Below, in pieces: positions 20,465 through 25,404 of a stretch of 32,000 nt of DNA (its first letter is position 1; each line of letters starts with the position of its first letter). Under the pieces are notes generated by a model. It searched no databases and was not told the DNA's origin. It saw nothing but the letters and a program-made list of their open reading frames with translations. Origin of the DNA: Pseudoalteromonas tetraodonis. Lineage in GTDB: Bacteria > Pseudomonadota > Gammaproteobacteria > Enterobacterales > Alteromonadaceae. The position numbers and the translations under genes were made by a program. The stretch covers positions 30,001-62,000 of the forward strand of contig NZ_CP011042.1 in the NCBI RefSeq assembly GCF_002310835.1. Direction: 5' to 3'.

Positions 20465-20794
20465 ATGAAACAAATATCTATTTTAATGTTTTTGGTGTGT
20501 ATGCTCGCTATTTCATATGCTGTTTATGCTAAATCATCACAAACATTTAGTGCTGGTGTAATTGCACAAGAACAAGTTTATCCAATCAAAGTATTAGCTT
20601 TGGGTGATTTTCAGCGTTGCTTTGTTGTTGCTGCGCAAAAAGAAGATGCTCTGTATTCTGCGTGTTATATCAAAAAGAGCGCGCAATCGATTTGGGTTGC
20701 TGAATCTGCGGGAGCGCGTTGTGAAATAAAATGTGAGTCGCATTTAAACAGTGATGGCAAAACACAGGTGCAGTACTTTACTACTGATTTATAG
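20465..20794 (+). CDS. Small secreted hypothetical protein (signal peptide, Cys-containing)
   Basis: 109 aa with signal peptide MKQISILMFLVCMLAISYAVYA. No family recognised. Its 3' end overlaps the convergent usher-like gene by 14 nt. Confidence 0.45.
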   Translation: MKQISILMFLVCMLAISYAVYAKSSQTFSAGVIAQEQVYPIKVLALGDFQRCFVVAAQKEDALYSACYIKKSAQSIWVAESAGARCEIKCESHLNSDGKTQVQYFTTDL

Positions 20795-23700
20795 TAAAAA
20801 TGCTGTGCCAAGGTTTCTTTATCGCGGTGGTGAGCCCTTTTATTTGTTTAATCACTTGCGTATCACAAGCTGTTTGCTTTGCATTATGAGGTCCTGACAG
20901 CATCAAATAGTGGGCTTTACCTTTTATTGCTCGTTCTGCTATGAACAGTGATGGGTTTTCCCTTAGTAGTTTTTTGTTAACGGATTTTTTAGAGGTATAT
21001 GCACCATACTGGCAAAAATAAGTCTCAGTATTTTTGGTTTGCATATCGCTCCACTCCCCTATTTTTCGCCACTGTGGTGAGGCATATCGCCTTGCATCAA
21101 CCATAAAGCTACCATGAAGCGCTGGTATTGAATAAACATCATTAATGGTTTGTTGTGCTTTAGCTGCATTGTTATATGGGCCTGCAACGAGGTAATAGCT
21201 ATCACGACGTTCATGCTTATATAACTGCAAAGCATAGGCTGCTTTATCAATTTTATTCGCAACAGTAAGTGCCGATTGAAACTTTTTGAATACGCCTAAT
21301 TGCACAAAATAAGGTGTTTGTTGGTTTGATTCAGCCGCTATTGTAGCTTGTTCAGTTAAGGTATCAGCGTTATTTGTGTATACAATAATATCTTGCAATA
21401 TTATGGTATCGCCGCTTTTTTCAGTGATGACCTGCTCAGGAAGATTTTTTATAGTTATGTTTTCTGAGAGTTGCTCATTTTTTTCTATTTCAAGTATATA
21501 ATTTCCTTGAGAAACATTGGGGAAATAATAATAACCATCATATTCAGTGACCGTTGAATAATGCTTTTCGCCGTCTTTTTCTTTAAGTACAACCGTCAGT
21601 CCTGCGATAGGTTTACTCTTTTCATTGCTCGATAGATAAATAGTCCCCTCAACCTCGTTGTAGACCACTAAAGGAATATTTACTTTGGTTTGTCCGCCTC
21701 TATGAGCCAATGTTTTAATTTTTCCTAAAGAGGGCTGCAAGTAAGGATTAGACAACGAGCGTAAATTAACATCTAAAACCTGGCCACCGTAACTGCTTGG
21801 TAGCAAGACCTTTCCGTCATTATTGGTGTATTTATCTCGCCATAGGTAGTTGCCAGTAAAATTAACGTCTTGAATTGGCTCATCGCCTTGGTCAAAGATT
21901 TCATTTTCATTCCAATCTATGAACGAACTAACTTCTATTTGCCCGGAATTTAATGAGCGAGGAGTGTCAAAGTTAAAGTCTGCTTCTAAATGATCAAAAC
22001 TAAATGTGCCATTTAAACCTAAAGATAAGCGCCAATCTCCTTGATTATCAACTTGCCCTGATACTTGTATATTAAATATCTCATGGCGGTAAGTATATTG
22101 ATGATTTAAAAGCGTACTTGCCGCAGAGTTAGACTGATACGTCAGCTGGGTTTGATTAAAGGTACTTTGTGTTTGTGGCCAGCGTAAACTACTTCTCAAA
22201 CGAGTGAGTTCTGCGCCATTATTAGCCTGCCAATCTAAGGTGTTGGTCCATTTCCAAGAGGCAATATCTATTGAAGAATAAAGCCGGTTTATTAGGTTAT
22301 TGGTATCGTCATCATAAAATAGTTGGCTTGACCATGTTCCTGCGACATAACTTTTATTGATGCCTAATGAGAACCGATTTTTAGTGTTAGTATTTTTACG
22401 TACTTCATTGTTCCACCTCATATTCCAGTTAAGGGAGTTAAAAAAATCAGTGCGGCCATTGAGGCTCAGTGACAGCCTATTTTTGAGTGAGTTCTCTTTT
22501 GCTACAAATAAAGCGCTAGAAAAGTTATTAAGGGCACTGTATTCAACATTAACATTGATATCGTTATAAAGTTTATTAGAAAGTAGGCCTCTAAAACCGG
22601 CAAAATAAGCATAGCCAGCATCGAGTTGTTTTGTGGCTAAAAAACGGTAACTGCCGTGATCTGTAAGTGTGTTTAGCCCAGATGATAGGTAGCTGCTGTT
22701 ATTTTGTTCAGTTTGCAAATGAGTAATTTGAGCGTCATAAGTAATAAACTCACTAATGCCATAAGAGAGATTACTTTTAAAGGCATTACTCATCGCCGTT
22801 GAGGAGTTACTGGATTGATTAAAAACGCTTTTATCTGTTTCTAAAAACTCCACCTGATAGCTTATTTTTCCGGGCGATAGTGCGTCTTGCCCTATTGTAT
22901 ATTTTTGAGTGCGTGTAATTTGCTCACCCTGTGAGCCAAAAAGTTTAATTTCAAAGATATTGTTGCCGTAAAAAGTTTCAACATCGGTAAATCGAACCAA
23001 ATTTTCGTCGTTAGCTTGAGTCGTGGCAATAAATTGGCCATTTCGATGCAGCTCTGCTTGCCAGCCCGGTAGTGCCGGTTCTTCAATGGTGATAGTTGAA
23101 AAATTTTGTGCCGAATGCGGGTTAGCATTTGAAATATAAAATCCCCGGCCTTGGTTTGAGCTAGTAATAAGCTGATCTGACTGAGATTGAATATCTCCCA
23201 ATTGGTAGTGAATGCGTGCCAGTGAGTGATCTTGTTCACTTAAGTTAAAGTCTTTAGTTATTTTTAAAAAGGTATTAGCGGTGTTTTCGTTTTTGTTGAA
23301 TCGTAGTTCAGCTCGATGATGAAATAAGTCAAAGTAGCTATTAAGTCTGAGTAGTCCCTTATAACGATTATTAGACGATTTATAGCTTGCTGATAGCGAA
23401 TATTCAGACACGGGGTAGGTTAGCGCTTGGTATTGGTCGTCTATAAAGTGGTCGTATTGCAGTGCTTTGGACTTAATTTTTTTTGTAATACCACTCGTTA
23501 CTTGGTTGTTATTATAAGTAAGCAAGTTACTAGAAAATGAAACCTGCATCAGTGAGTAATCAAAGCGCGAGTCGGTATTTAAAAGTGTATTTATAACAGA
23601 TAAATCAACATAGTGGTCGTAGTCATCGACAGCCCACAATGAAACATTTTCTGAGGGGGCTAAAGTTGAGGAAAGCTCAGCATTCAGCACCTGCTCACTT

Positions 23701-23999
23701 GAGTCAACGTTAGCAGACAGTGTATTTTGTGACACGTTTAAGCTAATTCCCATGGTCGATTTCAGGCCGCTTATGGGAAGTAGCAACTTATTTGATTTTG
23801 AGTAGTAAGCTTCTAAGTCGGAGACAACTGAGCGCCCATTTACCCTGACATTTATAATCACAAAAGACTCCTCATCAATAGGCCATTGATAAAGAGTCGG
23901 TAACTGCTTTGCGATGATTGCTTTGGGTACAATTAACAGTAATGTACAAAGTAACAAGCGAGCCGTTATACCATAGTATAAGGCATTAATGTGTAGCAT
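20781..23999 (-). CDS. Large outer-membrane usher-like protein with a C-terminal carboxypeptidase-regulatory-like domain and two SPOR-like repeats
   Basis: 1072 aa with an N-terminal signal/anchor. The N-terminal segment FVIINVRVNGRSVVSDLEAYYSKSNKLLLPISGLKSTMGISL resembles the usher N-terminal chaperone-docking domain. A roughly 600-aa Y/N/S/T-rich region with alternating beta-strand-like patterns follows. EGTIYLSS...GLTVVLKEKDGEKHYSTVTEYDGYYYFPNVSQGNYILEI resembles CarboxypepD_reg. PYFVQLGVFKKFQSA...YYLVAGPYNNAAKAQQ and YFCQYGAYTSKKSV...AHYLMLSGPHNAKQTA are SPOR-like. Confidence 0.55.
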   Translation of the reverse strand: MLHINALYYGITARLLLCTLLLIVPKAIIAKQLPTLYQWPIDEESFVIINVRVNGRSVVSDLEAYYSKSNKLLLPISGLKSTMGISLNVSQNTLSANVDSSEQVLNAELSSTLAPSENVSLWAVDDYDHYVDLSVINTLLNTDSRFDYSLMQVSFSSNLLTYNNNQVTSGITKKIKSKALQYDHFIDDQYQALTYPVSEYSLSASYKSSNNRYKGLLRLNSYFDLFHHRAELRFNKNENTANTFLKITKDFNLSEQDHSLARIHYQLGDIQSQSDQLITSSNQGRGFYISNANPHSAQNFSTITIEEPALPGWQAELHRNGQFIATTQANDENLVRFTDVETFYGNNIFEIKLFGSQGEQITRTQKYTIGQDALSPGKISYQVEFLETDKSVFNQSSNSSTAMSNAFKSNLSYGISEFITYDAQITHLQTEQNNSSYLSSGLNTLTDHGSYRFLATKQLDAGYAYFAGFRGLLSNKLYNDINVNVEYSALNNFSSALFVAKENSLKNRLSLSLNGRTDFFNSLNWNMRWNNEVRKNTNTKNRFSLGINKSYVAGTWSSQLFYDDDTNNLINRLYSSIDIASWKWTNTLDWQANNGAELTRLRSSLRWPQTQSTFNQTQLTYQSNSAASTLLNHQYTYRHEIFNIQVSGQVDNQGDWRLSLGLNGTFSFDHLEADFNFDTPRSLNSGQIEVSSFIDWNENEIFDQGDEPIQDVNFTGNYLWRDKYTNNDGKVLLPSSYGGQVLDVNLRSLSNPYLQPSLGKIKTLAHRGGQTKVNIPLVVYNEVEGTIYLSSNEKSKPIAGLTVVLKEKDGEKHYSTVTEYDGYYYFPNVSQGNYILEIEKNEQLSENITIKNLPEQVITEKSGDTIILQDIIVYTNNADTLTEQATIAAESNQQTPYFVQLGVFKKFQSALTVANKIDKAAYALQLYKHERRDSYYLVAGPYNNAAKAQQTINDVYSIPALHGSFMVDARRYASPQWRKIGEWSDMQTKNTETYFCQYGAYTSKKSVNKKLLRENPSLFIAERAIKGKAHYLMLSGPHNAKQTACDTQVIKQIKGLTTAIKKPWHSIFTINQ

Positions 24000-24770: not shown

Positions 24771-24894
24771 GGGACAACTCAACATGATAATAAAAAGTGG
24801 AGCGCGTTGCTCCACACATTTTATTTTTAATGCGCAATTGCGCAAAAAAATAAACTGAGGCTAACTAAGTAAGTTAGCCTCAGCTTTCATAGTC

Positions 24895-25404
24895 TTATTG
24901 GAAAGACACATCTACAGTGTAATCTACAGTGTAAGCAGCGCCCGCTGTCAGTGTAGAATCAACTGTCATATCACCATATACACTAACAGTAATATCGGTT
25001 GCACTTGCATCAGTAGTGAAAGCAGACGCAACATTGTCAGCAGTTGTTACACTGGTTGTGCCATCTGTAGCCGTTGTTACTGGAACAAAAGTTAAGTTAG
25101 TGCCTGTGCTTCCAGATACAGTAATATTCATTGCTGAATTTGGCGCTAAACCAGATACAGTAATTCCACCTAATTGAATGTTTGCATCTGACGCATCACA
25201 GTCACCCGATACAGCGCCTGCATTATCCATCGTACAGGTTGAGCTTGTAGATAAGCGAATTTTACCAAAGTGCAGTGGGCTATCTTCTGCAAAAGTAGGC
25301 TCAGTCCAACCATTTACACTTGCTTGAAATGTTTGGTTAGATGCAAGTAAAGAAGTTGATGAAATTGCTAGCAAAGCGGAAGCAGCAAAGATTTTTTTAT
25401 TCAT
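24895..25404 (-). CDS. Secreted fimbrial-subunit-like protein (DUF4402 / spore-coat-U-like)
   Basis: Starting at the ATG at 25404 gives MNKKIFAASALLAISSTSLLA. The mature protein is T/S/A/G/V-rich. It has LHFGKI early, two Cys residues and a C-terminal TAGAAYTVDYTVDVSFQ strand, as in DUF4402/SCPU subunits of archaic chaperone-usher systems. It is the first gene of the three-gene operon. Confidence 0.55.
   Translation of the reverse strand: MNKKIFAASALLAISSTSLLASNQTFQASVNGWTEPTFAEDSPLHFGKIRLSTSSTCTMDNAGAVSGDCDASDANIQLGGITVSGLAPNSAMNITVSGSTGTNLTFVPVTTATDGTTSVTTADNVASAFTTDASATDITVSVYGDMTVDSTLTAGAAYTVDYTVDVSFQ

Follow-up and report, generated by a model that had tools for sequence, protein, structure and literature searches.

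A probable chaperone-usher operon with a SPOR-tailed usher, from a deeply divergent branch, in Pseudoalteromonas tetraodonis

Chaperone-usher pili are the best-understood adhesive fibres of bacteria, and both their classification and the annotation of genomes depend on recognition of the usher. The ushers of the archaic systems are recognised by the Pfam usher model PF00577, unlike those of the family described here. A canonical usher is composed of an N-terminal domain, a barrel of 24 strands whose strands 6 and 7 are separated by a plug of 83 residues, and two C-terminal domains (PMC3394950). In this study, a 32,000-nucleotide (nt) stretch of Pseudoalteromonas tetraodonis DNA (assembly GCF_002310835.1, contig NZ_CP011042.1, positions 30,001 to 62,000, forward strand) was analysed. 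It is called the window below, and positions without a locus handle refer to it. Three of its minus-strand genes, which lie on chromosome 2, had been read in a first-pass annotation as a chaperone-usher operon of a non-canonical type, with SPOR repeats in its usher, and this core reading held in the comparisons made with the barrel and the chaperone and in the literature search. The locus is probably a minimal three-gene chaperone-usher operon for surface-fibre assembly, belonging to a large, uncharacterised and deeply divergent branch with a SPOR-tailed usher.

All three open reading frames (ORFs), for the subunit, the chaperone and the usher candidate, were recovered at the following positions.

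24895..25404, minus strand: subunit gene, 169 amino acids (aa) from MNKKIF, putative fibre subunit (ORF listing and homologue alignment).
24003..24785, minus strand: chaperone gene, ~255 aa, PapD-like and periplasmic, probable start ATG at 24785 or 24770.
20781..23999, minus strand: usher gene, 1072 aa (ORF listing, AlphaFold2, Foldseek and hhalign).

The 1072-aa protein was modelled with AlphaFold2 (AF2) on the basis of 18 homologues, resulting in a mean predicted local distance difference test score (pLDDT) of 74. In order, the model contains an N-terminal domain (residues ~36-155), six long strands (197-290), a sandwich of six strands (302-369), eighteen further long strands (379-669), a pair of beta-sandwiches (674-765, 770-875), a disordered linker and two beta-alpha-beta-beta-alpha-beta domains (897-968 and 993-1063). 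The predicted barrel has 24 strands (6 + 18), and its plug of 83 residues follows strand 6 and precedes strand 7, as in described ushers. Following a Foldseek search of the model against the PDB, the best 18 matches were all FimD or PapC (E-values 3e-28 to 2e-12, ~900 aligned columns), including FimD 3rfz at 3.2e-28 and PapC 7lhg at 7.5e-23. Sequence profiles were compared by hhalign with nine canonical ushers (FimD, Caf1A, MrkC, PefC, FedC, an Afa-type usher and three others). The wide-family profile aligned in local mode with Prob 99.1% and E 1.4e-18, and a profile anchored on the window protein with Prob 98.7% and E 3.8e-16. The order was co-linear over the plug, barrel strands 7-24 and both C-terminal domains (CTD1 and CTD2), as mapped below with FimD domain limits that we take to be those of the 3RFZ paper.

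FimD plug, precursor residues 286-369: window usher residues 292-374.
FimD barrel strands 7-24: window usher residues 375-677.
FimD CTD1: window usher residues 678-784.
FimD CTD2, first two thirds: window usher residues 785-841.

The large beta-barrel that had been suspected in the centre of the protein was thus found as a 24-strand plugged barrel in the AF2 model, in agreement with Foldseek and hhalign. As judged from the model and the profile comparison, the protein is an outer-membrane usher homologue, a very divergent one. Its parts correspond to the following stretches of DNA.

23520..23909, minus strand: N-terminal periplasmic domain, residues ~31-160, family uncertain (AF2 model).
23127..23450, minus strand: barrel strands 1-6, residues ~184-291 (DSSP of the AF2 model).
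22878..23126, minus strand: plug, residues 292-374, six-strand sandwich between strands 6 and 7 (AF2, hhalign).
21984..22877, minus strand: barrel strands 7-24, residues 375-672 (AF2, 18 strands; hhalign to FimD 370-710).
21693..21983, minus strand: CTD1-equivalent beta-sandwich, residues ~673-769 (AF2; hhalign to FimD CTD1).
21375..21692, minus strand: CTD2-equivalent beta-sandwich, residues ~770-875, Pfam CarboxypepD_reg/SdrD_B (Pfam, hhalign).
21096..21320, minus strand: SPOR domain 1, residues ~894-968, with the motif VQLGVF (Pfam SPOR).
20796..21032, minus strand: SPOR-like domain 2, degenerate, residues ~990-1068, with the motif CQYGAY (AF2 topology, hhalign).

The Pfam match to CarboxypepD_reg/SdrD_B lies at residues 792-848 and is marginal (32.7 bits against a cutoff of 32.3); an SdrD_B-like DxNxNxxxD motif, FIDWNENEIFDQGDEP, was also read from the sequence of the CTD1-equivalent sandwich. 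The CarboxypepD_reg-like sandwich had first been taken for a replacement of the usual C-terminal domains. Since it aligns to FimD CTD2, no such replacement has occurred: both CTD1 and CTD2 are kept in the hhalign comparison and only the SPOR tail is added. By alignment, the sandwich is the positional equivalent of CTD2 and probably its evolutionary equivalent as well.

The identification of the middle gene as PapD-like was borne out by fold and by profile. The AF2 model of the chaperone (pLDDT 91.7) consists of two beta-sandwich domains, and Foldseek matched it in the PDB to CupB2, Caf1M, FimC, PapD, CsuC, CfaA and EcpB (E ~1e-9), with template modelling (TM) scores of 0.5-0.6 on target length and the two-domain immunoglobulin (Ig)-like boomerang fold. 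Using hhalign, the chaperone profile aligned to nine canonical chaperones over 222 columns (Prob 94.9%, E 4.8e-8). In PapD, R8 and K112 form the conserved basic pair that anchors the C-terminus of the subunit. The invariant R34 of the window chaperone (LSEYRLYFD) aligns with the conserved A1-strand Arg of FimC (GATRVIYP); K127 aligns with the FimC Lys of NVKAIP in a column that varies within the family, and R123 is invariant. PF00345 was matched by distant relatives, with E 6e-7 in locus L003 and by precomputed annotation in P0054 and P0057, and some homologues are publicly named fimbrial chaperone or PapD.

Conservation of the module was assessed by means of a family profile covering usher residues 1-770, with which 1.84 billion representatives were searched. 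At E<=1e-3 the usher family comprised 2611 clusters (50% identity), and at the stricter E<=1e-30 it comprised 793. The species genomes of GTDB were scanned by a pattern-based search, which is not a census and gave more than 535 loci, 80 of which were kept; loci were found in Alteromonadales, Oleiphilus, Marinobacterium, Marinomonas, Ferrimonas, Woeseiaceae, Desulfobacter and Sphingomonadales, the last being the largest contributor. The order of the genes is kept: in 80 of the 82 fetched loci, the gene directly upstream of the usher homologue is a chaperone homologue. DUF4402-type ORFs precede the chaperone gene, sometimes as two or three tandem copies, and DUF4402 proteins of 300-380 aa are encoded downstream of the usher in other members of the family. 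These downstream proteins could be tip adhesins made of two domains; in the window locus there is only one subunit. Examples of loci with tandem subunits or downstream DUF4402 proteins are the following.

L063 307-2200
L060 57-2101
L081 7905-9008
L003 4183-5103

A SdrD_B/CarboxypepD_reg sandwich at the CTD2 position was detected in nearly all of the 52 family ushers scanned with Pfam (the window protein, nine distant relatives and 42 representatives). The tails of 141 top representatives outside the close family were compared: 43 end ~105-125 residues past the profile, with the sandwich only, and 98 are longer. A Pfam SPOR domain is present in 24 of 42 sampled long-tailed relatives, SPOR is estimated to occur in roughly 40% of the top representatives, and it is retained in the distant Aliiglaciecola, Colwellia, Marinobacterium and Desulfobacter. 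Judging from these matches, SPOR-tailed ushers are a recurrent feature of the family and are not peculiar to this locus; the architecture is that of a family with thousands of clusters, and SPOR is present in many of these. The other 18 long-tailed relatives (in the range P0094-P0238) have C-terminal extensions of 150-640 residues in which no SPOR match was found, and several of this range have N-terminal extensions of 100-360 residues.

In the window usher, the two SPOR-like repeats that had been proposed fared differently. The first is a clean Pfam match (residues 894-953, 29.8 bits against a cutoff of 21; 29.0 bits for the isolated segment) and keeps the QxGxF motif as VQLGVF. The second (segment CQYGAY…YLMLSGP) had no Pfam match alone and stands as a degenerate repeat only: aligned by hhalign to the family columns of the first it gave Prob 78% and E 1.8e-5, QxGxF/Y is present in both repeats, and the same beta-alpha-beta-beta-alpha-beta order is predicted for both in the AF2 model. 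The wide-family profile matched the SPOR domain of DamX (1e-10) and those of FtsN and CwlC at two successive positions. The ligands of SPOR domains are peptidoglycan glycan strands free of peptides (denuded), which are enriched at septa (PMC6895207). Both termini of an usher are periplasmic, and the SPOR tail would therefore adjoin the sacculus; by analogy, it is predicted to bind peptidoglycan.

The subunit has a signal peptide, an N-terminal extension with alternating hydrophobic residues (TFQASVNGW) and a C-terminal ...VDVSFQ. It does carry the hallmarks listed for it earlier: the string LHFGKI, a pair of Cys residues and, at the C-terminus, YTVDYTVDVSFQ. Among 24 homologues, which are confined to Pseudoalteromonas, Colwelliaceae, Thalassomonas and Alteromonas, the Cys pair C57/C69 is invariant, and the signal peptide, the TFQAxV N-terminal segment and the C-terminal ...YTVDVSFQ are kept as well. 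The proposed link to DUF4402 holds by transitive homology through iteration, but direct Pfam comparison gives nothing. In short, an ORF of Sphingopyxis terrae at the equivalent position (L056_1520_2065), itself a PF14352 (DUF4402) match at E 2.6e-24, was used as jackhmmer seed against a small local database and, after iteration, recruited the Pseudoalteromonas subunits at E ~1e-41, among them the 98%-identical orthologue locus copy (L004_2543_3097) at 2e-41. The subunit profile also directly matched the sphingomonad upstream ORFs at 1e-5 to 1e-7, and in UniRef two subunit homologues are named DUF4402 and one SCPU-domain protein. On the strength of this iterative search, the subunit is a divergent DUF4402-type pilin. 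SCPU (PF05229) was matched in two of the 24 homologues, with a best E of 0.27, and nothing was found with the subunit profile among PDB sequences. The C-terminal ...V.(F/Y)Q resembles the ...VQYQ of FimA, and the TFQASV pattern lies outside the DUF4402 domain; both are sequence hints of an Ig-like fold that may be completed by a donor strand.

Several results weigh against a chaperone-usher operon with a SPOR-tailed usher and are taken together here. In direct Pfam scans, PF00577 was unmatched by the window protein at E<=1, as it was by the nine distant relatives (E<=0.01) and the 42 representatives (E<=0.001); the window chaperone gave only weak Ig-like matches and none to PapD_N/PapD_C (PF00345/PF02753), and neither the window subunit nor its 24 homologues matched PF14352 at E<=1. 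The NCBIfam scan of the three window proteins made no usher, PapD or DUF4402 call. Confidence in the usher model was moderate (predicted template modelling score 0.52). As to the usher-like docking N-terminus, a periplasmic domain of about the right size is indeed present in the AF2 model, but it has no profile similarity to usher N-domains: aligned alone to the canonical ones by hhalign, it gave Prob 4%, with no detectable similarity. Comparison of the DUF4402-wide profile with 12 classical pilins resulted in Prob 12% by hhalign, over the C-terminal strand only. The N-domain also gave a weak match to Cu_amine_oxidN1 (E 0.026 here, down to 3.8e-9 in five of the 42 relatives), and profile searches of PDB sequences with the large protein did not find FimD or PapC.

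The absence of PF00577 from all 52 family proteins would fit another outer-membrane translocon or barrel, LptD-like or a non-pilin exporter, with unrelated Ig-like neighbours, for instance proteins like the WxL-interacting proteins (WxLIP). Two further observations point the same way: LptD is among the Foldseek matches of the large protein, and the best PDB match of the chaperone family by sequence profile is the WxL-interacting protein of Enterococcus faecium (9i25/9i1y, E 9e-6) and not FimC (0.01). LptD, however, is the best other large outer-membrane barrel at only ~3e-7, so that ushers match ~20 orders of magnitude better, and an LptD-like or other-barrel identity was rejected on this E-value gap. 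The co-linear hhalign alignment over plug, barrel and both CTDs at 99% probability, and the near-universal presence, in the fetched loci, of a PapD-like chaperone and a small secreted DUF4402 protein as partners, likewise speak for an usher, and the other-barrel explanation is highly improbable. The Enterococcus WxL-interacting protein shares the fold of the chaperone, which hints at a possible link between PapD-like chaperones and the Gram-positive WxLIP proteins.

The remaining contrary points concern the tail. Colwelliaceae MEBiC 14330 and one uncultured Alteromonadaceae genome lack it (loci L013 and L019), and SPOR2 lies in another frame than SPOR1 in Pseudoalteromonas sp. RW-H-Ap-1 and P. 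fuliginea (L004 6626-7214 and L005 6665-7182), where sequencing errors are possible. Protein identity to the product encoded on chromosome 2 of RW-H-Ap-1 is ~88% in the tail versus 98% over usher residues 1-770. The SPOR tail is evolutionarily labile and therefore not essential for assembly. It could even be a decaying or neutral appendage in this lineage, the usher working like an untethered one; these losses, frame changes and divergence, together with the failure of SPOR2 to match Pfam by itself, speak for this. Against this stand the retention of SPOR in many distant lineages (the 24 of 42 long-tailed representatives mentioned above), the conserved QxGxF of SPOR1 and the whole tail of the window usher, which forms one intact reading frame, and a neutral tail is given a low probability. 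A tail that binds peptidoglycan remains the preferred reading.

By homology with the Fim, Pap and Csu systems, the operon would work as follows. The 169-aa DUF4402-type subunit would be exported by Sec and captured in the periplasm by the PapD-like chaperone, which would complete its incomplete Ig-like fold, the invariant Arg34 anchoring the C-terminal carboxylate of the subunit (...SFQ). The chaperone would then hand the subunit to the usher, where the plug presumably gates the 24-strand barrel and is displaced for secretion, and the two C-terminal sandwiches would hold the chaperone-subunit end as it grows, while the incoming subunit would displace the chaperone strand with its N-terminal extension (donor-strand exchange). 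Since the operon contains a single subunit gene and lacks a tip adhesin, it would give rise to a thin homopolymeric fibre or to a coat. The SPOR tail, made up of a flexible linker followed by two SPOR domains, would most likely fasten the assembly platform to the sacculus, as a load-bearing anchor or as a means of biasing usher placement to septa and new poles.

The same machinery might instead produce a capsule- or coat-like amorphous polymer, as in Yersinia F1/Caf1 or the Mcu spore coat of Myxococcus. Such a product is suggested by the single subunit gene of the window locus, which is not accompanied by a two-domain tip adhesin, whereas some relatives have 2-3 subunit genes and DUF4402 proteins of 360-380 aa, and by the presence of Caf1M among the best structural matches of the chaperone. 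Archaic systems with a single major subunit, however, make thin pili too (PMC9452303), and we consider an amorphous coat unlikely; assembly of a surface fibre is retained as the preferred reading.

The spacing of the genes was re-examined. The 3-nt interval between the chaperone stop and the usher ATG is correct (24000-24002). A gap of ~50 nt between subunit and chaperone genes applies only to the longest chaperone ORF (24003..24845, minus strand), which starts with TTG at 24845. The chaperone most likely starts at an ATG, at 24785 or 24770, because homologues are 253-256 aa long, and the gap then amounts to ~110-125 nt. Two hairpins within the interval argue further against the TTG start.

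24852..24886, minus strand: terminator-like or attenuator hairpin, 15-bp stem followed by a T-run, directly 3' of the subunit stop.
24797-24815, minus strand: second terminator-like hairpin in the subunit-chaperone interval.

The subunit gene is hence not tightly packed against the others, as had been supposed; an attenuator-like element stands 3' of it instead. By analogy with fimbrial operons, the hairpin at 24852-24886 suggests attenuation that sets an excess of subunit over machinery, and it would probably keep expression of the subunit above that of chaperone and usher.

Two further features flank the operon.

25405..26393, minus strand: upstream non-coding region, ~1 kb, GC content 0.294, presumed promoter or regulatory region.
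20465..20794, plus strand: small secreted ORF, 109 aa, 4 Cys, convergent with the usher gene.

The upstream non-coding stretch is unusually long. Sigma-70-like matches in it were weak and fewer than in shuffled sequence, a search for a fimS-like invertible element or other repeats gave only short repeats at chance level, and no Rfam family was found in 20000-27000. The 109-aa ORF has a signal peptide and overlaps the usher stop by 14 nt; no family match was obtained with Pfam or NCBIfam. It is syntenic with the module: 12 loci, ranging from Pseudoalteromonas to Thalassomonas, have it in this place, with 33-94% identity.

The locus had seemed more AT-rich than its neighbours, but its GC content is 0.390 versus 0.393 for the window and only the upstream 1 kb is AT-rich; a compositional island was rejected on these values. 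Of the two neighbours named in the first-pass annotation, arfB was confirmed as an RF-1-domain protein by Pfam, and what had been called an iron operon is just a PepSY_TM protein and a small ORF with no family match. Linkage to arfB was seen only in the three closest genomes, and only about ten Pseudoalteromonas species contributed to the 80 loci retained from the pattern-based genome scan; as far as that scan goes, the distribution in Pseudoalteromonas suggests a patchy, accessory element. A DUF6942 gene (29953-30489, plus strand) lies a few kb from the module, as does its counterpart in Thalassomonas sp. RHCl1 (L001 12787-13290, 43% identity), a shared neighbour that is possibly a remnant of a common chromosomal context.

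In a literature search that did not cover all journals, no paper on DUF4402/PF14352 turned up, and nothing relevant was found on the chaperone-usher systems of Pseudoalteromonas or on ushers that carry SPOR or another wall-binding domain. The earlier remark that tethering of an usher to peptidoglycan is undescribed agrees with this result, as no paper on such an architecture was found. The pathway itself is well known; new here is a deep lineage of ushers that annotation does not identify as ushers, and in which an addition of a peptidoglycan-binding type recurs. Usher homologues of the family are publicly named only 'carboxypeptidase-like regulatory domain-containing', 'SPOR domain-containing' or 'hypothetical', and are therefore missed by pilus censuses; the branch holds thousands of sequence clusters and is common in marine Alteromonadales and Sphingomonadales. 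The only hold on a canonical fibre is a barrel that floats in the outer membrane, and a wall-binding tail would add a design principle. If real, it could transfer pulling forces to the sacculus or direct pili to division sites and new poles, either of which would matter for the way in which marine bacteria colonise surfaces and form biofilms. Tentatively, and leaning somewhat against it ourselves, we raise the broader proposal that these loci form a major DUF4402-type chaperone-usher clade which the sources searched do not recognise (>2000 clusters at 50% identity from Alphaproteobacteria, Gammaproteobacteria and Desulfobacterota), which lies outside the six classical Greek-letter clades and is invisible to the Pfam usher model, and that its ushers, often SPOR-wired, are the first peptidoglycan-anchored or septum- or pole-targeted chaperone-usher platform.

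Compared with the classical systems FimD and PapC (PF00577, PapC_N, PapC_C), the window usher shares the 24-strand barrel, the plug of ~83 residues, the two periplasmic sandwiches and the adjacent gene for a PapD-like chaperone. It differs in its low identity (~12-15%), in an N-terminus not recognisable as PapC_N, in C-terminal sandwiches that score as SdrD_B/CarboxypepD_reg, and in the added 200-residue tail with two SPOR domains, which brings it to 1072 aa against ~810-880 aa. The archaic (sigma) systems Csu of Acinetobacter, CupE of Pseudomonas and Mcu of Myxococcus are likewise small operons of environmental Gram-negative bacteria with small Thr/Ser/Gly-rich subunits containing a Cys pair, and CsuC is among the chaperone matches; SCPU, in contrast, is barely seen in the subunits here (E 0.27, two of 24), and we know of no SPOR tail in an archaic chaperone-usher system. 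The F1 antigen system of Yersinia pestis also combines a single structural subunit with a chaperone and an usher, and Caf1M is a close fold match, whereas Caf1A is a canonical usher with 35% identity to FimD, the subunit belongs to another family and a peptidoglycan-binding domain is lacking.

With FtsN, DamX, DedD, RlpA and CwlC the usher shares the SPOR domain, the first repeat being a Pfam SPOR match and the profile matching the structures of DamX, FtsN and CwlC. Those proteins are inner-membrane or lipoprotein factors of division and wall remodelling; here, in contrast, a SPOR domain predicted to bind glycan is fused to the C-terminus of an outer-membrane barrel for pilus assembly. Wall-binding modules are also found on other envelope-spanning machines, as the AMIN domains of the PilQ secretin and the OmpA-like domains of Pal and MotB. 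The concept would be the same, a machine tethered or localised through a wall-binding domain, but the domain families and the machines are different, and none of these is the usher of a chaperone-usher system.

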